Positions 1 to 21,193 of a DNA stretch of 64,000 nt are shown here, piece after piece. This DNA comes from an uncultured Eubacteriales bacterium (lineage in GTDB: Bacteria > Acidobacteriota > Aminicenantia > Aminicenantales > Aminicenantaceae), in contig CAZWHQ010000010.1 in the NCBI GenBank assembly GCA_964633715.1, positions 26,263 to 90,262 on the forward strand, given 5' to 3'. Made by a program: the position numbers and the translations under genes. Under the pieces are notes generated by a model. That model did no database searches. It saw only the letters and a list, made by a program, of their open reading frames with translations, and was not told where the DNA came from. The stretch's first letter is position 1, and every line of letters begins with the position of its first letter.

Positions 1-621
1 CTCTTCATCAATATATCGCTGTCCAAAATAGACATCTTCCATATCTTTTCGGTTCATCTCACCCTCACCGAGACCATCATCGTTAAGATAATCATTCAGA
101 TTTCCCCAATCCACCGGTCTTAATAACGAATCTTTTTTTAGTCTTTTAATGAGCTGGTTGGCCATCTCCTCTCTGGACACAAATTCCCATGAATTCGGTT
201 TAAAACTGTAAGTCTTCAAGGGAGTGCCAACGATCAATATGTCGCTGGGGACTAAAACATTGTTAAAAAAATGCCAGATCGCCTCTTCGACCTCGGGAAA
301 AACATCTCTTATCTCAAAGATGAGAACAAATTGCCTGGACAGTTGGGGAGAAAAGATCTTTTTTTTGTCTTGGGTATCGATCCTCGATTCCCCTCTTTTT
401 GCACTCGTCTTGTTTATCAGATACACGGCATCTATGGTTTGGAGAAAACCATTTTCATACAATTCGAAATCATCGATAGTCAAATCTCCCACAAATTTAG
501 CTCCATCATAAACCCTCACCGGGACTTCAATGTTCACAGCAACGGCTTCATGCTGGATTTCTTGGGCAGCAATAGTCAATCCAAGTATAAGAACGGCTAA
601 GAAGATAAAATGTTTTTTCAA
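1..621 (-). CDS. Secreted VWA-like (TIGR03436-type VWFA-related domain) protein, partial. The gene runs off the left edge; its N-terminus lies at 621.
   Basis: My own translation of the minus strand gives a stop-free frame from a TTG at 619-621, with GGAGG 10 nt upstream. The product starts MKKHFIFLAVLILGLTIAAQE, a signal peptide, followed by a VxVxVxVxDxxGxxVxxLTxDDFxLYENG block typical of the VWFA-related acidobacterial-type domain. The plus-strand track ORFs 224..600 are shadows of this gene. Confidence 0.45.
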   Translation of the reverse strand, partial: MKKHFIFLAVLILGLTIAAQEIQHEAVAVNIEVPVRVYDGAKFVGDLTIDDFELYENGFLQTIDAVYLINKTSAKRGESRIDTQDKKKIFSPQLSRQFVLIFEIRDVFPEVEEAIWHFFNNVLVPSDILIVGTPLKTYSFKPNSWEFVSREEMANQLIKRLKKDSLLRPVDWGNLNDYLNDDGLGEGEMNRKDMEDVYFGQRYIDEE

Positions 622-750
622 GCTGAATTCCCCCTCCTGATACAAATCATCATAATTTTCTTCTGCAATCTTTGTGCCAAGCACATCCAGGGTCACAGAG
701 AACTATTTGCCTGGATCTTTGTCCTCAGTTGATGGCAAATGTCTCCCAAA

Positions 751-1620
751 TTAATATTTTATATCGGTTTCAACCGTGAAAAATTTATAGTTATCATAGA
801 TGACGGTTGTCTTGGAAAGCGTAAATCGCTGTCCTCTGGAGAAAATGTAAATTTCTTCGACATAGTATTTATTGGGGAATCTGATTTTGTTTTTCTCAAA
901 ACCAAACTCAGAGACAAATACAATTTTAGGTTTGGCTTTAAATTCTTTTGCCGTCTGTTCTATCCCTTCATAATTTCCCATGGATTTCGGATTCCACTCA
1001 ATTTTCAAAATGCTAAAATCCTCTTTCCCTATCCAAATTTTCCCATATAAAGCATCAAATGCTTCCGGAAATTTTGGTGTCGCTTCAAGAATAACAGCTT
1101 GGTTCCCTTTATATTTAACGTCTTTGAGTTTCGTGTATTCATATTTTTCCTGCTGCTTCCGGCCAAGAAGACCAATTGGCCCAAAAATAATATACTTATG
1201 AAAAAAGCGCTTTGTTTTGAGCTGAGCGTTTTTTATGTAGGTGGATATGCCTTTTTGTTTTAATAATATTCTCTGCTCATCGATAACCCCTCCAAATCTT
1301 TTTAACTGATAATCATAGACATATATGTTCCTTTCATGAGGAGAAGAAACACGTCCCGACGCATTCAGCTGCATTCGTGTTATTCCAGCCCCTGTAGAAG
1401 TCAATCTGGAAGAAGGGGAATTATTGATAACCTCCGTAATTTTTTCTTCACAAACAAAATAGAGAGCTATATTATCTAGTCTTTCACAGTACTCTGCACA
1501 TTTTTCTAGTATTTTTTCTAAATCGTACTCAGCTTCTTTTTTAACGAATTCTGATCTGCCGGACAAGGGATTTAGAAGAAAGACAAAAAGGAGAACAATC
1601 TTAAGGAATTTGGATATCAT
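751..1620 (-). CDS. Hypothetical secreted protein, 289 aa. It sits directly upstream of the VWA-like gene on the same strand.
   Basis: ATG start with AAGGAG 6 nt upstream. N-terminal signal peptide MISKFLKIVLLFVFLLNPLSG. I recognise no catalytic motif. Confidence 0.5.
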   Translation of the reverse strand: MISKFLKIVLLFVFLLNPLSGRSEFVKKEAEYDLEKILEKCAEYCERLDNIALYFVCEEKITEVINNSPSSRLTSTGAGITRMQLNASGRVSSPHERNIYVYDYQLKRFGGVIDEQRILLKQKGISTYIKNAQLKTKRFFHKYIIFGPIGLLGRKQQEKYEYTKLKDVKYKGNQAVILEATPKFPEAFDALYGKIWIGKEDFSILKIEWNPKSMGNYEGIEQTAKEFKAKPKIVFVSEFGFEKNKIRFPNKYYVEEIYIFSRGQRFTLSKTTVIYDNYKFFTVETDIKY

Positions 1621-1686
1621 TCAATCTCCTTTTTATTTATTATATTCCAACCAGAATTGAAATCCAATTTTAAGATGACTAAAAAA

Positions 1687-1960
1687 GCATTTCCATTTCC
1701 ATGATATCAAGAATGAGTTCTGGAAAGTGATCAGAAATCACGCTACGTTTTTCCCAGCCTCCACCTGTAACCTGCAGTTGAGTCGAATGGACGTCGTCAT
1801 GTCTGTCTCCATGCACATTCGTATGTGATGGAGGCAGAATGCGTAAGGGTTCCGTTCGACTCTAGAATAAATACCATGCCCGCTCGTCCTCCAAACGGAT
1901 TTCTCCATCATGCTGTCCTAGTTCCCAGAACTCTAAATATAATCACGGAAATGGAAATGC
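1687..1960. repeat. 274-bp element bounded by 19-bp terminal inverted repeats (18 of 19 matching), MITE-like or structured-RNA-like, in a 530-bp intergenic spacer.
   Basis: The left repeat gcatttccatttccatgat lies at 1687-1705. The right repeat atcacggaaatggaaatgc lies at 1942-1960 and is its reverse complement with one mismatch. The interior is non-coding and contains internal hairpins such as ctccatgcacattcgtatgtgatggag. Confidence 0.4.
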
Positions 1961-2150
1961 TTAGGATGACTCACACAAACTCAGCTGAATGAACTCTATA
2001 AGAGCAATATTCTTTACACTCAGTAAAGAAGGCTTAAAAGCCGATAACTCAGAGTTACAAAAACCAGGGAATCTTCAATTACATTTAGTCGTAACTGTAA
2101 AAGCCATTACTCCAAGTCAACACACGAAATTTGTTTGTAACTATCAGTTA

Positions 2151-3056
2151 TTAAATCGGGAATTTGATCCTTGTCAACTCTTCGGAAATATCCCAGAGCT
2201 TTTGGGCTATCTCTTTATCATGTGAAGACTCATTCGAATTGACTTTTTTTGGATATCCCTTCTGTTCTTGCCATCCGGATGGGCCGTAATAATCATTTCC
2301 TTTGACATCAGCCGCTGTAGCGGCATAGAGTGTCGGCAGGGCTCCCATATCAATCCCCTGGGAAAAAAAATGATTGAGAAAACCCAATAGACCCACATGC
2401 CTCTGAAGATCTGTGGCCGTCCAACCGGGATGCGCAGCCACTGCGATTGTCTTCGATCCAATTTTTTCCAATTTCTCCTGCAGTGCATAGGTGAAATAAA
2501 GATTGGCGATTTTGCTGTCGCCGTAGGCCTTTGTTTTTTTGTACTTTCGCTTTTCCCAGTTGAGGTCATCAAAATCCAGCTTCCCATATCTGTGACCTGT
2601 ACTACTCACTGTGACAATACGTGAATTTTCTGTCTTTAAAAGCAGGTCCAAGATTTGACCCGTCAGGGCAAAATGCCCCAGATGATTTGTCCCAAATTGG
2701 AGTTCAAATCCATCGGTGGTTTTGGAGTAGGGCGGCATCATGACACCGGCATTATTGATCAGCAAATCCAGTCGCGAATATTTTTTTTTGAATTCTTCGG
2801 CAAAAAAGCCCACCAACTTTAAGCTGGCCAGATCCAGTTCCATAACCTTTGCATCTGCATTTGGATGTGTTTCCTTTATTTTTTCTAGAGCCGCCTGACC
2901 TTTGTCCAAATTCCTGACGGCGATTACCACCGCAGCATTTTTAGCCGCAAGCACACGAGCCGTCTCGTAACCGATCCCGCTGCTGGAACCCGTGACAATG
3001 GCTACCCGACCTTTTTGATCGGGAACATCGTGGCTGTCCCATTTCTGTTGTGACAT
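2151..3056 (-). CDS. Short-chain dehydrogenase/reductase (SDR) family oxidoreductase.
   Basis: TGSSSGIG Rossmann motif near the N-terminus and a YxxxK-type active-site region. Similar to the retinol dehydrogenase / WWOX-like SDR subfamily. Confidence 0.85.
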   Translation of the reverse strand: MSQQKWDSHDVPDQKGRVAIVTGSSSGIGYETARVLAAKNAAVVIAVRNLDKGQAALEKIKETHPNADAKVMELDLASLKLVGFFAEEFKKKYSRLDLLINNAGVMMPPYSKTTDGFELQFGTNHLGHFALTGQILDLLLKTENSRIVTVSSTGHRYGKLDFDDLNWEKRKYKKTKAYGDSKIANLYFTYALQEKLEKIGSKTIAVAAHPGWTATDLQRHVGLLGFLNHFFSQGIDMGALPTLYAATAADVKGNDYYGPSGWQEQKGYPKKVNSNESSHDKEIAQKLWDISEELTRIKFPI

Positions 3057-3187
3057 GTCACTCTCCTCTACATGTAATTTGATATTCTAATTTAAACGAT
3101 CCTTTGAAAATATACTATACTTTCTAGCAGATTTCTTTCTTTCCCTAAATTTGTTGAAGGAATAAGAAGGATGAGGTAATAATAGAC

Positions 3188-4657
3188 ATGAACAAAGGGA
3201 GAAAAACCATGAGATGGCTAAAAATTGTCCTGCTCCTAACACTTTTAACGAGCAGCTGTGTTTCCAATAATCCTCCGGAACCCTACGGAACGGTCCCGAC
3301 CGAACGCCAGCTTATCTGGCACAATATGAAGTACCATGCGTTTATCCACTTTGGGCCCAATACATTTACCGATATCGAATGGGGGCATGGAGACGAGTCC
3401 CCCGATGTCTTCAATCCCTCTGAATTGGACTGCCGCCAATGGGCCAAAGTCATTAAGGACGCCGGTATGAAGGGGGCCATTATCACAGCCAAACACCATG
3501 ATGGATTTTGCCTCTGGCCTTCGGCGTACTCGACGCATACAGTCCGCGAGAGCCAATGGCGAAACGGAAAAGGCGATGTCCTCAAAGAACTGTCAGAAGC
3601 CTGCCGGGAGTTTGGAATAAAATTTGGCGTCTATCTCTCCCCCTGGGACAGGAACCACCCCACCTATTTCACAAATGCATACAACTCGGTGTTTAAAAAA
3701 ATGCTGGAGGAGGTCCTGACCAATTACGGCGATGTGTATTATGTGTTTTTCGATGGCGCCTTCAGCGTCGGGCCAAACGGGAAACGGCAGGAATACGATT
3801 GGGCAGGTTTTACCGAGGTCGTCCGCCGATGCCAACCTAACGCTGTGATATTCAGTGATGGGGGACCCGATGTCCGCTGGATTGGAAATGAAAGAGGATA
3901 CGCGTCCGAAACAAACTGGTGCACCGTAAGAAAGGACACTTTTTATCCCGGAATTGGAGGCGTCAACGACCAGCTGCTCACCGGCCATGAAGACGGCGAA
4001 CTGTGGATTCCCTCTGAAGTCAATACCTCCATCCGCCCAGGCTGGTTCTATCACAAAGAGGAAGATAACAGAGTAAAATCACTGAAAAGGCTCATTGACA
4101 ACTACTATCATTCAGTCGGGATGAATGGCAATTTTCTTTTAAATCTTCCGCCTGATACAAGAGGCCTCATCCATGAGAACGACATCCAGAGATTGATGGA
4201 GCTTAAGGCCTATCTGGATGAGGCTTTTTCACTCAACCTTGCTCTTGATGTCCGTGCGAATGCAACACAAACAAGAGGAAAATCCTTCAGCGCAAACAAA
4301 GCCGTCGATGGGAATCCCGATACCTATTGGGCCCCAAAGGATGATGTTTTAGAGGCGTCAATAGAGCTGGATTTTGGTTTGCCCAAAGAAATCAATGCCC
4401 TGCTTATCCAAGAATATATCCCATTGGGCCAGCGGGTGAAATCCTTTTCAGTTGAAGCCCAAATAGACGATAAATTTCAACAAATCGCCACCGGGATCAC
4501 TATTGGAAACCGCAGAATAGTCAAATTCAACTCGATTTTAACACAGAAAATAAAAATAAATATCTTTGCTAAGGCCTGTCCTTTGATTAGCAACATCGAA
4601 GTCTATCATGTCCCTGAGATAGATGAGAGCCCAGCCCCTCAGAAAGAGGTGATGTAA
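3188..4657 (+). CDS. GH29 alpha-L-fucosidase with a C-terminal F5/8 type C (discoidin) domain. It is probably a lipoprotein.
   Basis: Contains HFGPNTF, the block AKHHDGFCLWPS characteristic of GH29, and ANKAVDGNPDTYWAP characteristic of a discoidin domain. The signal LLLTLLTSSC is present. An alternative start at 3209 (MRWLK) has AGGGAG upstream. Confidence 0.8.
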   Translation: MNKGRKTMRWLKIVLLLTLLTSSCVSNNPPEPYGTVPTERQLIWHNMKYHAFIHFGPNTFTDIEWGHGDESPDVFNPSELDCRQWAKVIKDAGMKGAIITAKHHDGFCLWPSAYSTHTVRESQWRNGKGDVLKELSEACREFGIKFGVYLSPWDRNHPTYFTNAYNSVFKKMLEEVLTNYGDVYYVFFDGAFSVGPNGKRQEYDWAGFTEVVRRCQPNAVIFSDGGPDVRWIGNERGYASETNWCTVRKDTFYPGIGGVNDQLLTGHEDGELWIPSEVNTSIRPGWFYHKEEDNRVKSLKRLIDNYYHSVGMNGNFLLNLPPDTRGLIHENDIQRLMELKAYLDEAFSLNLALDVRANATQTRGKSFSANKAVDGNPDTYWAPKDDVLEASIELDFGLPKEINALLIQEYIPLGQRVKSFSVEAQIDDKFQQIATGITIGNRRIVKFNSILTQKIKINIFAKACPLISNIEVYHVPEIDESPAPQKEVM

Positions 4658-4674
4658 AGTCTCTTTGTTGAAGA

Positions 4675-6246
4675 TTGAAAATGCCCCTAAAGAGGAGAGA
4701 TTTTTTAAAGCTCACGGCCGCGGGTCTGTCAGGACTAGCTCTCCCGCTCAACTTTTCCTGCAGAAACCGCAGAGGCCGTCCCAATATTCTCCTCATCTGT
4801 GTGGATGACCTGCGCCCGGAGCTGGGATGTTATGGTCAAGAGTTTATCAAGTCTCCGCACCTAGACTCTCTCGCTCAAGAAGGTATTGTTTTTTCTCGAC
4901 ATTTTATTCAGGCCCCGACATGCGGCCCCTCGAGGTACAGCCTTTTAACAGGTCTGCGCCCCAGGACTAAAGCGGAGCTGAATAATGCTTTTATGGAAAA
5001 TAACTTTTATAAAAGACCGGAAACAGAAATTCCTGAAACTTTTATACACCATTTCAAGCGCAACGGTTACTTAACAGTAGGGATCGGCAAGATCAGCCAT
5101 ACTCCTGACGGCCGGATCAGAAAAGACAATTCAACATTGGAGCTGCCCTACAGTTGGGATGAGATGCTCAGTGAAAAGGGGCCTTGGGGCGGAGGATTTG
5201 ACACCTTTTTTGCCTATGCCAGCGGGGAAAGCCGGGCAAGTTTGAAGTTTCAGGTTCCTCCGTATGAGTGTGCCGACGTCCCTGACGAAGGGTATCCGGA
5301 CGGATTAAACGCAAATCTGGCTGTCCGGAAACTCAAGGAACTTTCCGTCAAGGACAAACCCTTTTTGCTGGCTGTGGGATTCTACAAACCCCACCTGCCT
5401 TTTAATTCTCCAAAAAAATACTGGGATCTCTATAAACGCCAAAACATATCTTTGTCTCCCAATCCTGATGTGCCAGTCAACACTTCATTGGACCTCCTGC
5501 ATGACAGCCGTGAATTTTTCGGCAACTACCAAAAGGGAAAAGAATATGGAGCGAGAGGAAAAAAGATCAGCGAGGCGTATGCCCGAGAAATTCGTCATGC
5601 CTACTTTGCAGCCGTAAGCTATGTCGATGCTCAAATTGGAAAGGTTCTCGACAATTTAAAGGATCTCGAATTGGACAAGAATACCATTGTCGTCCTATGG
5701 GGAGACCACGGATGGCATTTAGGCGACCACACGATATGGGGGAAACACAGCCCATTTGAACGGTCCACCCACAGCCCGCTTATTATCAAATTCCCCGGCA
5801 TGAAGAGGTCCGGAATCAGCACAAGAGCACTGACAGAAACAATCGATATCTATCCAACACTCTGCAGTCTAACAGGAATTCATCCTCCCCCCGGCCTCGA
5901 GGGAAAAAGCCTTATCAAAATTCTGGATGAGCCGCAGACAGATGGAAAACAGGCCGTCTACAGCTACCAGAATAACCGCATTTCCATGAGGACAGACCGC
6001 TTCCGACTTGTCGCCCAGTATGAAGAGGACCGCCCTTGGACATTTGCCCTGTTTGATCACCAGGCCGATCCCTATGAAACAATAAATATTGCCGAAGACC
6101 ATAAAGATATCGTCGAACAATTACTGCCGCTGCTGAATGAAGGCAACACAGGGATTATCCCAAAAATTGATTTGACAAAGAATGGGGATGGATCTCAAAA
6201 AATTTGCCCCGATAATCAATCCTGTGGTATGTTCAAACCAGAATAA
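4675..6246 (+). CDS. Sulfatase, formylglycine-dependent, iduronate-2-sulfatase-like, with a Tat signal.
   Basis: The N-terminus has a Tat motif RRDFLK. ILLICVDDLRPELGCYGQ closely resembles the iduronate-2-sulfatase N-terminus. The C-x-P-S-R formylglycine motif is present as CGPSR. Confidence 0.85.
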   Translation: MKMPLKRRDFLKLTAAGLSGLALPLNFSCRNRRGRPNILLICVDDLRPELGCYGQEFIKSPHLDSLAQEGIVFSRHFIQAPTCGPSRYSLLTGLRPRTKAELNNAFMENNFYKRPETEIPETFIHHFKRNGYLTVGIGKISHTPDGRIRKDNSTLELPYSWDEMLSEKGPWGGGFDTFFAYASGESRASLKFQVPPYECADVPDEGYPDGLNANLAVRKLKELSVKDKPFLLAVGFYKPHLPFNSPKKYWDLYKRQNISLSPNPDVPVNTSLDLLHDSREFFGNYQKGKEYGARGKKISEAYAREIRHAYFAAVSYVDAQIGKVLDNLKDLELDKNTIVVLWGDHGWHLGDHTIWGKHSPFERSTHSPLIIKFPGMKRSGISTRALTETIDIYPTLCSLTGIHPPPGLEGKSLIKILDEPQTDGKQAVYSYQNNRISMRTDRFRLVAQYEEDRPWTFALFDHQADPYETINIAEDHKDIVEQLLPLLNEGNTGIIPKIDLTKNGDGSQKICPDNQSCGMFKPE

Positions 6247-6297
6247 ATTAAATTTTTGACTTAATAGAAAGGACTTTTACATAAAGGAGAATCAAAA

Positions 6298-6546
6298 ATG
6301 GATGACAAACAGAAAAAATTTGAATGTGCCCACTGCGGCTTCACCGCTGACAACAAATTCACAGGGGATATCTGCCCCGATTGTGGATTGACATTCTGGA
6401 AATGCGGCAACTGTGGATTTCTCCATACTGCGGCTGCTCCACCCAACACATGCCCATCATGCAAACAAAAATGTGAGTTCCGAAATGTCTCATGTTACAC
6501 ACCTGACTGTGGGGGACCGGGCAAAGTGGATCCCCGTTTAGTCTAA
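6298..6546 (+). CDS. Small rubredoxin-like double zinc-ribbon protein, 82 aa.
   Basis: Four CxxC knuckles are present: CAHCG, CPDCG, CGNCG and CPSC. Two of them are the CPxCG form typical of rubredoxin. AAGGAG lies 8 nt upstream of the ATG. Confidence 0.55.
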   Translation: MDDKQKKFECAHCGFTADNKFTGDICPDCGLTFWKCGNCGFLHTAAAPPNTCPSCKQKCEFRNVSCYTPDCGGPGKVDPRLV

Positions 6547-6624
6547 ATCACAACTGCAGATTGACCCCATATCTCCGGTGTGCTAACTTATCCTTCAAGC
6601 TAATTAAACCTGGAGGAAAAAAAC

Positions 6625-7035
6625 ATGGCTAAAATTGAATGGGACAACAGCTTATCCATTGGCGTGGATATAATTGATGAGCAGCACAAAATGCTCATCC
6701 AAAAATTAAAAGATCTTTCCGATGCTTTCCAGATGGGACTCGAACAGAACAAAATGCTGAAGACCATAGATTTTATGATCGATTATACCGACTTTCACTT
6801 CTGTGAGGAAGAGAACCTCATGGCTAAGCATAAGTATCCGGGATTAGAAGCACAAAAAAAACAGCACAGGGAATTTCAGGAAACACTGAGCCATATATTG
6901 GAGGACTATCAGGATGAGGGCCCAACCAAGGCTCTGGCAACGTCTATCAACGTTTTTTTGCTCAACTGGTTAATCAATCATATCAAAGGTGTTGATGTCC
7001 AAATCGGAAAATTTTTATCTGACAAAACGAGCTAG
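6625..7035 (+). CDS. Hemerythrin-like (bacteriohemerythrin) protein.
   Basis: The N-terminus MAKIEWDNSLSIGVDIIDEQHKML is hemerythrin-like. His and Glu ligand spacing (H..H..E..H..H..D) is conserved. A strong RBS GGAGG is present. Confidence 0.8.
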   Translation: MAKIEWDNSLSIGVDIIDEQHKMLIQKLKDLSDAFQMGLEQNKMLKTIDFMIDYTDFHFCEEENLMAKHKYPGLEAQKKQHREFQETLSHILEDYQDEGPTKALATSINVFLLNWLINHIKGVDVQIGKFLSDKTS

Positions 7036-7074
7036 AACTCACAAAGATCCTTTGATTCGAGACAGGTCAAAAAA

Positions 7075-8967
7075 ATGAAAGAATTAAAGCTGTTCGGTAC
7101 CAAAATTATCGATGACGTCTTTACCGACGAAATTTCTTTTTTTAAGCCTAAATTTGAGGTGGATTATGACGCCTATGTGGAAAGACTCTGGAAGGCCAAT
7201 CCGGAGCTCCACAAAATCCTCAAAAACGCGGATGACTTGGAGGCCGCAAGGGATGGTGTCTTTTCCTATCTGGAGCAAGCCGAACGAGAAATATTCGCTG
7301 TGGACAACGATCTCCATATTTTGGAAAAGGCTACCGTGAGGGAAGGAATCCGTGCTTTTAAAAGTATAATCGGTCCGGTCAATGAATACCGCACCGAAGT
7401 GTCTGCCCTGGATATCTTGTGGAAGTTGGCTCAGGACACAAAAGACGACATCAGAACAGAAGTTTCTGTAGGATTTTTAATGGAATTTATCAATCTGTTC
7501 CGGAGTGTCATCGGTCAATCCAATATCTATCATGAGAATGGTGAGGTCAAAAAACATATTCCCGACTTTTTAAAGCTCGAGGGACTTGCAGCAGCTCAGG
7601 CGAGAACGGACATCCTGGATGAATTGGGTTCAACTGTAAAGAAATATTTTAAAAAATATCCTTCCGGACTCGAAGACGAAGTGATTTTTTGGCGAAAAGA
7701 AAATAAGACAAAAATACTCCATTATTTTGGAGGAAAAGAGGCAGATTGGAACGATTATAAATGGCATCTCAAACATGTTATCAGTGATTCCAAACCGCTT
7801 CTGGATCTCATCGAACTGACCAAAAATCAAAAAAATGCCATCGAAAAAGCCAATCTCAACAAAATACCCTTTGGGATCACACCCTACTATCTCAGCTTGA
7901 TGGATTCAAATATCTCCATCGGTTATGATCACGCTATTCGCGCACAGGTGATCCCTCCAAAAAAATACGTGGACTCGATGTCCGAACACCGGGAGGAACG
8001 GAACACCTTTTTTGATTTTATGGGAGAACATGACACCTCTCCACAGGATTTGATCACACGCCGCTATCCCTTAATTTCGATCTTAAAGCCCTTTAATACA
8101 TGCGCACAGATCTGCATCTACTGCCAGCGCAACTGGGAGATCGAACGGGTATTGGATCCAAAAGCCACGGCCTCGAAAGAACAGATCGATTTAGCCCTGG
8201 ACTGGTTTGATGACCACAAAAGTGTCGGAGACATTTTGATAACAGGCGGAGATCCTGTCGTGATGAAAGACAATCAATTGGAGAGGATTTTAGACATCCT
8301 AGCCAAGAAAAAACACATCTACCGCATCCGACTCGGAACAAGGACACCGGTTGTCCTTCCCATGCGCTGGACCGACGACTTGATCAAGATTGCCGCCAAA
8401 TATCACGATCCTCCACGAAGAGAGATTGCCGTCGTCACACATTTTGAACATCCCTACGAAATCACCCCGGAGAGCTTGGAGGCCGTTCAAAAAATTCGAA
8501 AAACCGGGATCGGTGTCTATAACCAGGTCGTCTTCACCATGGAAAATTCCCGGCGTTTTGAACTGGCAAAGCTCCGCTGGGACTTAAAATCCATCGGCGT
8601 GGATCCTTACTACACATTCAACATGAAAGGAAAAGAGGAAACCCAACAGTATATGGTCCCCATTGCACGAATTTTGCAGGAAAGGAAGGAGGAGGCCCGG
8701 CTGCTGCCCGGACTGGACCGCACAGACGAACCTGTTTTTAATGTGCCTAAATTGGGGAAGAACCATCTGCGCTCCTGGCAGGATCACCGCTTAGTGATGA
8801 TTCTGCCCAATGGCTCTCGAGTCTATGAATTTCATCCTTGGGAAAAAAACATTGCTCCGGTTCCACCATATAATTATATCGATGTTCCTATCTACGATTA
8901 CCTGGAAGAGTTGGCGGCCCGGGGTGAAAATATACGGGATTACCGGACAATCTGGTTTTATTATTAG
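7075..8967 (+). CDS. KamA-family radical SAM aminomutase, unusually long at 630 aa, with an extra N-terminal domain of about 220 aa.
   Basis: The CxxxCxxC cluster motif is present as CAQICIYC. The TPYYLSLMD, RAQVIP and ITGGDPVVM blocks match lysine 2,3-aminomutase family cores. The N-terminal 220 aa have no KamA counterpart. Confidence 0.8.
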   Translation: MKELKLFGTKIIDDVFTDEISFFKPKFEVDYDAYVERLWKANPELHKILKNADDLEAARDGVFSYLEQAEREIFAVDNDLHILEKATVREGIRAFKSIIGPVNEYRTEVSALDILWKLAQDTKDDIRTEVSVGFLMEFINLFRSVIGQSNIYHENGEVKKHIPDFLKLEGLAAAQARTDILDELGSTVKKYFKKYPSGLEDEVIFWRKENKTKILHYFGGKEADWNDYKWHLKHVISDSKPLLDLIELTKNQKNAIEKANLNKIPFGITPYYLSLMDSNISIGYDHAIRAQVIPPKKYVDSMSEHREERNTFFDFMGEHDTSPQDLITRRYPLISILKPFNTCAQICIYCQRNWEIERVLDPKATASKEQIDLALDWFDDHKSVGDILITGGDPVVMKDNQLERILDILAKKKHIYRIRLGTRTPVVLPMRWTDDLIKIAAKYHDPPRREIAVVTHFEHPYEITPESLEAVQKIRKTGIGVYNQVVFTMENSRRFELAKLRWDLKSIGVDPYYTFNMKGKEETQQYMVPIARILQERKEEARLLPGLDRTDEPVFNVPKLGKNHLRSWQDHRLVMILPNGSRVYEFHPWEKNIAPVPPYNYIDVPIYDYLEELAARGENIRDYRTIWFYY

Positions 8968-19381: not shown

Positions 19382-19609
19382 AATCTTTTCCCTCTAAGAA
19401 AACATTTGAATCCTTATAAAATAAAAATATAAGCGTAAGGGTGTACAGTGAAAAAGGTGGTATGGAGGCTGAAGCGAGCATGGTTTCCGGTCGAAGACCG
19501 GAAGAGCGAAGCCGGAATCCAGCCGTTGTTCCTCGCTGGGGAAAAACGAGCGTGCCTTTAAGCTGTATTCCCTGAGCATTATTTTTTATTTTATGAGGTC
19601 TTAAATTTT

Positions 19610-21193
19610 TCATTCTTTTGTTCTGTCCAGCCAGGAAAGCGCGGCCGTCGGGCAGGACGTCACGCATTCCTCGGCCACTTTTTCCAATCCTTCGCTGAGC
19701 GGTTTCCCAAACGGCGTGTCCACATGGACATCAAAACCGCGTTTTACAAACGTCAAACCGAGATGTTCTCCTGATTGTTTGGTGATCTGCACACACAAAC
19801 CACATTTGATACATTTTCCCGGTTCATAGATCACAAGATCATGTTGAATAACTTTACTGAGAGTTTTTCGTTGAGAAAAATGGAACCGCCGTTGGTTTGA
19901 ATCGTACTCTTCGGCATACTGCCTCAGCTTGCATGAATTGGATTTCCGGCAGTCACAGCCAAAACAGCGTGAAGACTCCAGAACGGCCTCTTCTTTTGAA
20001 TACCCTATCTCGAATCCACTCCCATATGTTAATCGTTGAAGCTCTTGTGCCTCTTTGAGCAGTTCGGCTGTGTCTTCTTTGCTGATTTTTCCAAGAATGG
20101 AATTAAAATTTCTGGACGGGCCGGTTTGTCTTTCACCTTTGAGAAACCGGTTGGCGGAATCTGCTAGAAATTTTCCATGCGCCGAAGCACGGATGGCCAT
20201 CCGGGATTCTGACACGGCATTCCCTCCGGCAAAAACACCGGGAATACTGGTTTCAAATGTTTTTCGATTTATAGAGATTCCCTTGTTAGACAAGGACAAT
20301 GCTGACCTGCCCAACAGTTCAGGATTAAAGGTCCCAAGAGCCAATACAATCGTTTCATAATCTGATCTTAACTTGTCCCACTGCAGGTCTTTCCCAAGGG
20401 ATCGTTCCAAAAAAAACTTGACTCCCAACTCGGCGATGCGTTCGATCTCAGCATCGAGTACTTTCCTGGGCAACATATCCTCTGAAACTCCGTAACGAAG
20501 TTTACCGCCGGGCAGCGGATTTTGATCATAAATATGACAGGCATGGCCATATTGAGCAAGATAATAGGCCGCAGAAAGACCTGCCGCTCCGGCCCCAAGG
20601 ATAGCCACAGTTTTCCCAGAGCTGGATTTAACATATGGCCGGAAGGGAGAATTTTTAGCCAAATCCACGTCGGCCACATATCGTTTCAGAGAACATATTG
20701 AGACAGAATCATCAAAGGATTTTCTGTGGCACCCTTTTTCACATGGGGCAGAGCAAATCCGTCCCAATATTGCAGGAAGTGCAATATTTTTTTTGACGGT
20801 GATAAGAGCTTCCTCAAACTGCCCGTCTTTAATCTGCCGGATCATAAGTGGAATATTCATCTGGGCCGGACAAGCGCGAAGACAAGGGGCATCACAGTCC
20901 CCAATATGTTCGCTCAACAAAAAATCCAAGGCATCCTTTCTGGCCTCCCTTACCTTTTCGCTGTTTGTTTCGATCTTCAATCCTTCGGATAAAAGGGCCG
21001 AACAGGACGGGATCAACCGGTCCGACTGGATATCGTGAACGACACAGATCATGCACGAGGTCGTGGGATCATATCCCTTAAGATGACACAACGTAGGGAT
21101 GTGAATATCCAAGCCTGCAGCCGCTTCAAGGATCGTGCTATCACTAGGGACAGACACATTCAAATTGTTGATCGTGATGTTGACGTTCTTCAT
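19610..21193 (-). CDS. Fe-S flavoprotein: an N-terminal 2Fe-2S ferredoxin plus a GltD-like NAD(P)H-binding pyridine-nucleotide oxidoreductase. It resembles StnA / glutamate synthase small subunit.
   Basis: N-terminal CHLKGYDPTTSCMICVV is a NuoG-type 2Fe-2S motif. The CDAPCLRACP Fe-S region is followed by the FAD/NAD(P) motif VAILGAGAAGLSAAYY and by GVFAGGNAV. A C-terminal Cys-cluster ferredoxin region follows. Confidence 0.75.
   Translation of the reverse strand: MKNVNITINNLNVSVPSDSTILEAAAGLDIHIPTLCHLKGYDPTTSCMICVVHDIQSDRLIPSCSALLSEGLKIETNSEKVREARKDALDFLLSEHIGDCDAPCLRACPAQMNIPLMIRQIKDGQFEEALITVKKNIALPAILGRICSAPCEKGCHRKSFDDSVSICSLKRYVADVDLAKNSPFRPYVKSSSGKTVAILGAGAAGLSAAYYLAQYGHACHIYDQNPLPGGKLRYGVSEDMLPRKVLDAEIERIAELGVKFFLERSLGKDLQWDKLRSDYETIVLALGTFNPELLGRSALSLSNKGISINRKTFETSIPGVFAGGNAVSESRMAIRASAHGKFLADSANRFLKGERQTGPSRNFNSILGKISKEDTAELLKEAQELQRLTYGSGFEIGYSKEEAVLESSRCFGCDCRKSNSCKLRQYAEEYDSNQRRFHFSQRKTLSKVIQHDLVIYEPGKCIKCGLCVQITKQSGEHLGLTFVKRGFDVHVDTPFGKPLSEGLEKVAEECVTSCPTAALSWLDRTKE

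Follow-up and report, generated by a model that had tools for sequence, protein, structure and literature searches.

A 282-bp non-coding segment (1683-1964) in a 64,000-nucleotide stretch of contig CAZWHQ010000010.1, from an uncultured Aminicenantaceae bacterium, is very probably a miniature inverted-repeat transposable element (MITE). The element, which is non-autonomous and promoter-targeted, would carry the 23-bp terminal inverted repeats (TIRs) of a transposase of the ISKra4/ISLre2 (UPF0236) group. Hereafter, the whole 64-kb stretch is named the window. The repeats are accompanied by a target-site duplication (TSD) and belong to a sharp-edged, multi-copy family. An autonomous insertion sequence (IS) with the same ends exists, insertion close to promoters is a family-wide property, and the window encodes no transposase. 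An earlier note on this DNA had proposed a MITE or another non-autonomous transposable element at this place, and the additional copies, their TSDs and the autonomous IS with the same ends bear out that proposal.

The element is located in a spacer of 530 nt (1621-2150) between a gene coding for a LolA-like lipoprotein-sorting protein and a gene coding for a short-chain dehydrogenase/reductase (SDR). Its sense strand, defined by the core of the family, is the - strand, as for both flanking genes. The length of this gap had been pointed out in the earlier note; the element and its duplication now account for 291 of the 530 nt. A repeat search identified inverted arms of 21 nt at 1685-1705 and 1942-1962 (95% complementary, one mismatch, separation of 236 nt), which contain the 19-mers 1687-1705 and 1942-1960 already recognized as an inverted repeat with one mismatch. 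The sole mismatch opposes A1701 to C1946 on the + strand, equivalent to a G.U pair on the - strand. The 19-mer occurs at only these two sites of the window, for a chance expectation of 0.03, and two sites were found in 0 of 100 shuffled sequences. In agreement with the description of a non-coding, moderately GC-rich interior with hairpins, the G+C content is 45% inside the element, higher than in either flank (23% and 35%). Helices 1715-1726/1922-1933 and 1780-1791/1851-1862 are nested in this interior, and the open reading frames (ORFs) within 1683-1964 do not exceed 57 aa and have no Pfam match. The predicted folding energies are -102.6 kcal/mol on the + strand (z -6.9 versus shuffled controls) and -110.2 kcal/mol on the - strand (z -7.4). 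The terminal and subterminal inverted repeats account for part of this strong folding, and the remnant of a conserved multi-helix core for another part; much of the folding energy of the window copy comes from the terminal and subterminal repeats and from a 103-nt secondary module.

An exact scan with GCATTTCCATTTCCRTGAT retrieved 113 metagenome-contig stretches and 57 stretches in species-representative genomes. Single Aminicenantes metagenome-assembled genomes contain 6-9 exact matches to the 19-mer (JBKHJA01, JAUWVG01 and CAYSCW01, the last carrying the label 'Eubacteriales'). Further copies, which the earlier note had suggested looking for, are therefore many in related genomes and metagenomes. 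A large number of the metagenome matches are found at most ~150 nt from a contig end, in line with repeats that break assemblies, and the family breaks up those of Aminicenantes genomes. By the names of its best protein relatives, the window itself is placed in Candidatus Aminicenantes / Acidobacteriota. In viral contigs, one chance match to the 19-mer and 0 matches to the core pattern were found, and the plasmid collection gave no DNA match.

When the copies are aligned on the 19-mer, similarity starts exactly at the repeat and the sequences outside are unrelated. Upstream of the 19-mer, G is preferred at -4 (64%), A at -2 (57%) and A at -1 (69%), and the sequence is random further out. As the bias ends at -4, the family terminus is G-N-A-A-GCATTTCC. 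Hence, of the 274-bp element first outlined at 1687-1960, the repeats are real but the family comparison sets the ends 4 nt outward on each side, giving the 282 bp of 1683-1964. Pairing of the ends, with up to four mismatches to the 19-mer allowed, delineates elements of 48-330 bp, including ~70-bp internal-deletion derivatives and a common form of 198 bp. Several interior families are enclosed by these ends. Some of them, without the core described below, were observed at loci fetched for comparison (designated by L-numbers: L019, L025, L039, L073, L081, L091, L119 and others), and several of these core-less families contain a long palindrome around GGTTCCTNTCCATCC...GGGTCTTGGCNAGGATGG, found in either orientation.

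Target-site duplications were also found with the copies, as the earlier note had proposed to check. In the register starting 4 nt outside the 19-mer, the two flanks of an element match at a mean of 4.15 positions out of 9. The corresponding value is 2.38 +/- 0.24 when the right flanks are permuted among elements (2000 permutations, maximum 3.12). No other register matches as often as the 9-bp register beyond the 4-nt extension. Clean duplications flank L075 (9/9) as well as L061, L066, L093 and the window copy (8/9). An 11-nt direct repeat, TTAAGATGACT / TTAGGATGACT, is observed in the flanks of the window copy in the same register as the 9-bp duplication; its extra matches beyond 9 bp were taken to be due to chance or to overlap with the last four bases of the element.

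The autonomous partner was found at locus L093 (3633-5016). This 1376-bp IS has the same 19-mer ends, with 0 and 2 mismatches, and encodes an ORF of 423 aa matching Pfam UPF0236 (E 8e-26, 91 bits, above the cut-off of 24.3 bits). The IS and the short elements have nothing in common beyond the terminal ~26 bp. A tblastn search with the partner transposase showed no homologue encoded in the 64-kb window, and no transposase is present in 1683-1964 itself; the element is a non-autonomous dependant and not an IS. Since it is non-autonomous and common to the IS only in its ends, it is a MITE by definition. It is also shorter than ~600 bp, is bounded by TIRs and a TSD, and has many copies with unrelated flanks in related genomes. 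A transposase of the L093 type probably moved this particular copy. At another locus, L034 (386-2863), an ISKra4-like IS copy is broken near its 5' end by a further insertion, whose opposite-strand ORFs (539-820 and 735-1586) encode an integrase-core (rve-like, IS481/IS3-type) transposase, judged by sequence alone.

The transposases of ISKra4, ISLre2 and TnGBS belong to the prokaryotic Mutator-like DDE enzymes (p-MULT 3 and 4) and generate duplications of 8-9 bp; for many of them, insertion takes place 13-17 bp upstream of sigmaA promoters, and the full elements have a conserved orientation relative to the promoter (Guerillot et al. 2014, PMC3942029). We observed the same kind of target around the present family. 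When the flanks of 172 distinct ends are read outward, -35-like hexamers (TTG...) are most frequent at offset 16 (26 cases versus a background of ~5) and -10-like hexamers at offset 39 (22 cases versus ~1.6), which corresponds to a 17-nt spacer. No hexamer peak is seen on the opposite strand of the 172 flanks. Scoring against TTGACA-16/18-TATAAT gave a match of at least 9/12 at that position, on one side, for 22 of the 44 distinct paired elements; with the scored position moved by 30 nt as a control, the number is 2 of 44. Both the L093 IS (TTGACG-17-TAAAAT at offset 16) and the window copy are among these 22 elements.

In the window, the flank of the element reads TTGGAT (-35, 1667-1662), a 17-nt spacer and TATAAT (-10, 1644-1639); AAGGAG (1631-1626) comes next, and then the ATG (1620-1618) that opens the LolA-like gene. 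TTGGAT-17-TATAAT is probably the active promoter of this gene, so that the analysis also locates its likely promoter. With its end 15 bp upstream of the -35 box, the element is outside the likely transcript of the LolA-like gene. Both the 9-bp duplication and the insertion upstream of a promoter are found here, and the predicted site is the characteristic target of the ISKra4/ISLre2 transposase group. The promoter scan also gave a hybrid site with its -35 inside the repeat, no more than expected by chance (2 found for 2.0 expected). With the present family, the targeting of promoters by Mutator-like transposases would extend to short non-autonomous elements in an uncultivated phylum. Because the insertions occur at a fixed distance, they could be used as markers of sigma-70-type promoters in organisms for which experimental promoter data are lacking.

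Overall, the following scheme may be proposed. A transposase of the ISKra4/ISLre2 (UPF0236) group, encoded elsewhere, would have recognized the 23-bp ends and mobilized the element in trans. Through a 9-bp staggered cut at GATGACT(A/C)A, it would then have been inserted with its end 15 bp from the -35 box, on the upstream side of the LolA-like gene promoter. The activity of the transposase and that of the promoter are both predictions drawn from sequence statistics.

Several observations weigh against this interpretation. At the window copy, the TSD is matched at only 8 of 9 positions, the outermost bases are A (1683 end) and C (1964 end) in place of the consensus G, the -35 hexamer is weak (3/6) and the offset is 15 instead of 16. 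Because both outermost bases deviate from the consensus and the TSD has one mismatch, the window copy is probably now immobile or nearly so. The L093 ORF scores below the curated NCBIfam cut-offs for ISKra4 (E 4e-53, 181 bits, cut-off 205), ISLre2 (E 2e-42, 146 bits, cut-off 200) and ISH6 (E 4e-28), and its nearest annotated plasmid-borne relatives are ISKra4 family transposases with 22-24% identity; therefore, the assignment holds at the superfamily level. Copies in this genome are countable on one contig only, with one intact-ended copy and one relic. Finally, no empty site was found for this insertion, the gene order of the relatives being different, and 48 reconstructed empty-site queries gave 0 junction-spanning matches in the fetched loci.

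The comparison with relatives illustrates this last point. None of them carries the element at this position, which in itself speaks for a mobile element. In the nearest relatives of the LolA-like gene (61-68% identity), the upstream neighbour is 65-130 nt away, with no element and no room for one. Relatives whose SDR is 81-84% identical have no LolA-like gene and show a different gene order; in L188 (5906-6076) and L189 (3634-3838), with an SDR 82-84% identical, the SDR gene is directly followed by a homologue of the 38x-aa lipoprotein gene, which is the next gene in the window. The spot taken by the LolA-like gene and the MITE is thus variable, and an empty site cannot be read through SDR synteny.

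Table 1 Features of the MITE at 1683-1964, of its surroundings and of the second element
Feature	Position	Strand	Remarks
Left TSD copy GATGACTAA	1674-1682		8/9 match to 1965-1973
MITE, 282 bp	1683-1964	- (sense)	Family alignments, TSD register, terminal consensus
Promoter-proximal TIR AAAAGCATTTCCATTTCCATGAT (sense-strand 3' end)	1683-1705		20/23 identical to the reverse complement of 1942-1964
3' core remnant, retained	1727-1758	-	GCUGGGAAAAACGUAGCG 1741-1758; GUGAUUUCUGAUCAC 1727-1741
P3 3' strand GAUUUCU	1733-1739	-	Inside GUGAUUUCUGAUCAC
P2 3' arm UUUCCAGAACUC (sense)	1715-1726	-	Pairs with 1922-1933
P2 5' arm GAGUUCUGGGAA	1922-1933	-	
Long-hairpin module, 103 nt	1770-1872	-	Own 12-bp inverted repeat 1780-1791/1851-1862
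5' core part (5' third), retained	1874-1909	-	Only part covered by nhmmer and covariance-model matches
Elements inside the 5' core part	1874-1904	-	P3 5' strand AGAAAUC 1898-1904; CCGUUUGGAGGACGAGCGG 1880-1898; invariant GGGCAUGG 1874-1881
Distal TIR, reverse complement CTAAGCATTTCCATTTCCGTGAT	1942-1964		
Right TSD copy GATGACTCA	1965-1973		
Sigma-70-type promoter-like site of LolA-like gene	1639-1667	-	Read from sequence, scored 9/12
LolA-like lipoprotein-sorting gene	751-1620	-	
SDR oxidoreductase gene	2151-3056	-	
Second element (older relic)	19397-19612	+ (core)	Core 19449-19563; profile and covariance model

The subfamily of the window copy contains a conserved core. In its common 198-bp form, the sense strand shows P1 (formed by the terminal repeats), a subterminal helix P2 and a core of ~115 nt. 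All subfamilies have P2, with sequences unrelated from one subfamily to the next, and the core is common to subfamilies otherwise unrelated. The core consists of a closing helix P3, the invariant GAGCGGGCAUGGU, a variable hairpin P5, the invariant AGAGCGA and a hairpin P6. The P5 stem is fully compensated between copies (CCUCC/GGAGG, CAUUUCC/GGAAAUG, UCCGGUC/GACCGGA, CCUUUCCC/GGGAAAGG). P6 has an invariant loop region, UCGCUGG, and compensated outer pairs (GCGAA/UUCGC, GUGGA/UCCAC, GCCAA/UUGGC, GCUAA/UUAGC). Sites of variable length are positioned at the hairpin tips. In addition, the sense strand is G-rich, with G.U pairs far outnumbering A.C, and in 27 of 27 copies it folds more stably than its complement, the mean difference being 14 kcal/mol.

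Covariation was evaluated on two alignments. In a MAFFT alignment of 21 cores, 93% of the cells are paired, versus 43-61% when partners are slid, and changes on both sides affect 11 pairs and 40 cells, where sliding gave maxima of 6 pairs and 9 cells. The observed values were reached in 0 of 500 shuffles. A covariance-model alignment of 28 cores, which leans to the model by construction, gave 94% paired cells, 13 pairs and 65 cells. Taken over all slid controls, the values are 43-63% paired, at most 6 pairs and at most 13 cells. With E values up to 5, neither intact family members nor the second element of the window gave a relevant match in Rfam 15.

Some known folds were considered and rejected. 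A hammerhead (CUGAUGAG, L122 subfamily) has no third stem, its motif is absent from other subfamilies and Rfam gives no match. An HDV-like (hepatitis delta virus-like) ribozyme (GGCAUGG, CCUCGCUGG) would require a hairpin stem of 3 bp where 7-11 bp are found, and the helix order is nested. A pseudoknot between the P6 loop and the 3' tail was discarded on steric grounds and shows no conservation. Separately, the P2/P3 junction of L122, L121, L167 and L008 carries UGAUGA on one strand and CUGA on the other and resembles a C/D-box kink-turn; this internal loop is not conserved in other subfamilies.

The window copy retains P1, P2, the P3 strands (1898-1904/1733-1739), the 5' third of the core and a 3' remnant. 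Alignment with 198-bp members shows that the 103-nt module replaces P5, the AGAGCGA junction GAGAGCGAG and the 5' half of P6. The earlier idea of a structured element has some substance for the family, whose interior holds a covarying fold, but the window copy is without half of this fold. Its covariance-model score is 18.3 bits, versus 100.5 bits for the intact core at 19449-19563. The 103-nt module looks like an independent small repeat family: it is found beside another copy (L076 1033-1135, 94% identity), at another place within the copies of L094 and L111, and also in L099 and L030.

The intact core belongs to the second element of the window, an older relic of the same superfamily. Around this core, inverted arms rich in A/T (19400-19427 / 19583-19610) have the look of decayed ends. 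The relic is found between two - strand genes, one coding for a 527-aa oxidoreductase-like protein and the other for a BamB-like protein, and a promoter-like site, TTGAAT-16-TATAAG, is observed just upstream of its P2 helix. At the same intergenic site, L180-L183 (BamB-like protein 81% identical) have kept the whole core. Comparison of the relic with L180 shows four compensatory double changes (P2, P5, P6), one mismatch repair and loop changes; only four changes affect unpaired positions. On the other hand, the relic core is cleanly deleted in L178 (88%), where P2 alone is left, and partially deleted in L184 (82%). Kept in L180-L183 and lost in L178 and L184, the core appears to persist under structural constraint after decay of the ends, yet to be dispensable.

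A tentative extension, which adds to the MITE explanation and does not exclude it, may be considered for the core. The family may be the vehicle of a mobile structured RNA (or single-stranded DNA) module, the core possibly being a functional non-coding RNA (ncRNA) of an undescribed class; we consider this conceivable, with the odds somewhat against it. With the same reserve, one could picture a ~115-nt fold with at least four covarying helices, invariant junctions and a variable-length hairpin that would have spread through Aminicenantes genomes on Mutator-type ends. As roles, RNA processing, RNA stability, regulation, transposase control or ribozyme catalysis may be envisaged; 1683-1964 would be a decayed copy and 19397-19612 a retained one. 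The sharing of the core between subfamilies whose other parts are unrelated, covariation above slid and shuffled controls, and the invariance of the unpaired GAGCGGGCAUGGU, AGAGCGA and UCGCUGG while the helices vary all argue for such a function. So do the strand asymmetry, the length variation at hairpin tips, and the compensatory changes of the relic, whose terminal repeats have decayed.

Other features argue against a functional RNA. Rfam has no matching family, no internal promoter is evident in the 198-bp form, and the orientation of the core relative to the targeted promoter is unbiased (5 versus 5, counted by hand). Other interior families keep the same ends without the core. The core is deleted in 2 of the 4 orthologous lineages and disrupted in the window copy, and is therefore dispensable to the host. 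Moreover, the copies share ancestry, and an appearance of compensation in hairpins could arise when quasi-palindromes undergo templated correction at replication. If the core is a functional RNA, the family would represent a rare bacterial case of a complex RNA fold spread by a cut-and-paste DNA transposon.

The remaining explanations compete with the MITE itself. It is very unlikely that 1683-1964 is what remains of a full-length IS whose transposase gene was removed here by an internal deletion. Its ends are identical to those of the 1376-bp IS at L093, and deletion derivatives are common in the family. However, the interior does not match this IS beyond the terminal ~26 bp and is homologous to that of dozens of other short copies; the window copy therefore arrived as a short element.

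Equally improbable is a free-standing, non-mobile ncRNA gene, or a riboswitch-like leader of the LolA-like gene, closed by a helix of 19-21 bp, an alternative that the earlier note had raised for the 19-bp pairing. The strong folding of both strands and the 5' intergenic position on the strand of the downstream gene would fit such a structure. However, the covariance search of Rfam at the locus, also suggested in the earlier note, gave only chance-level matches at E up to 10, and none that identifies a known family. The sequence of the closing helix recurs at unrelated loci with unrelated flanks and interiors, as a transposase-recognition repeat does, and a TSD flanks it here. In addition, relatives have no such leader at their LolA-like genes, and the end of the element, 15 bp upstream of the -35, is outside the likely downstream transcript.

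A chance inverted repeat, or a large intrinsic terminator serving the SDR gene, can be dismissed: the expectation of 0.03 matches and the family evidence exclude the former, and the UUUUUU (1686-1681) that directly follows the closing helix on the - strand, as a terminator would have it, is made of the last four bases of the element and two bases of the duplication, has no equivalent in other copies and is not called by a terminator scan.

As a MITE of this group, the element can be compared with known systems. It resembles ISKra4/ISLre2/TnGBS elements by its TIRs, its 8-9-bp repeats and its location with respect to the range of 13-17 bp from the -35 box of sigmaA promoters, and the L093 partner has the same target position. 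It differs from them in the absence of a transposase, in the distant character of the partner transposase and in its uncultivated Aminicenantes host; moreover, the short copies here do not show the orientation bias described for full elements. In the literature on ISKra4 together with MITEs, judged by title and abstract, no earlier account of this family was found.

Correia elements of Neisseria, ERIC, RUP, BOX and Nezha are likewise short, non-coding, bounded by inverted repeats, flanked by TSDs, multi-copy and often intergenic. Their transcripts fold into long hairpins and can affect the expression of neighbouring genes; Correia elements duplicate TA. Unlike these, the window element has different end sequences, a 9-bp duplication, another transposase superfamily and a fixed distance to a promoter; in place of a simple palindrome, its interior has a multi-helix core with support from covariation. 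Eukaryotic Mutator-derived MITEs are non-autonomous elements with long terminal repeats and 9-bp duplications that depend on Mutator-superfamily transposases. The dependence and the duplication length are the same here, in a different domain of life; to our knowledge, no sigma-70 promoter targeting is known for the eukaryotic elements. A conserved nucleic-acid fold also travels with a mobile element in the case of HEARO, IS605-orfB omega-type RNAs and retroelement ribozymes, all represented in Rfam. However, none of these models matches here, and the transposase is a DDE enzyme that needs no guide RNA. Palindromes derived from IS200/IS605, REP and BIME, which have neither TIRs nor TSD and depend on a Y1 transposase, were set aside, as the element has TIRs, a 9-bp duplication and a DDE partner.

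Other inverted repeats are present in the window. An 18-nt inverted repeat (2044-2061 / 2134-2151, 89% complementary) is located just downstream of the SDR stop codon and overlaps it; the first ~50 nt after this stop codon are also recognizable in L190 (73% identity across 93 nt). Two further pairs, 59150-59172/59481-59503 (23 nt, 83%) and 46064-46079/46478-46493 (16 nt, 94%), have arms 300-400 nt apart and are unrelated in sequence to the 1683-1964 element. Finally, positions 1-7614 of the window align with a public Joint Genome Institute contig (L001, marine-sediment metagenome 3300002231) with 7 gaps and 1 mismatch in 7.6 kb (99.9% identity). The SDR gene, intact in the window (301 aa), is called there as two pieces of 235 and 65 aa, which probably reflects a homopolymer error in one of the two assemblies.

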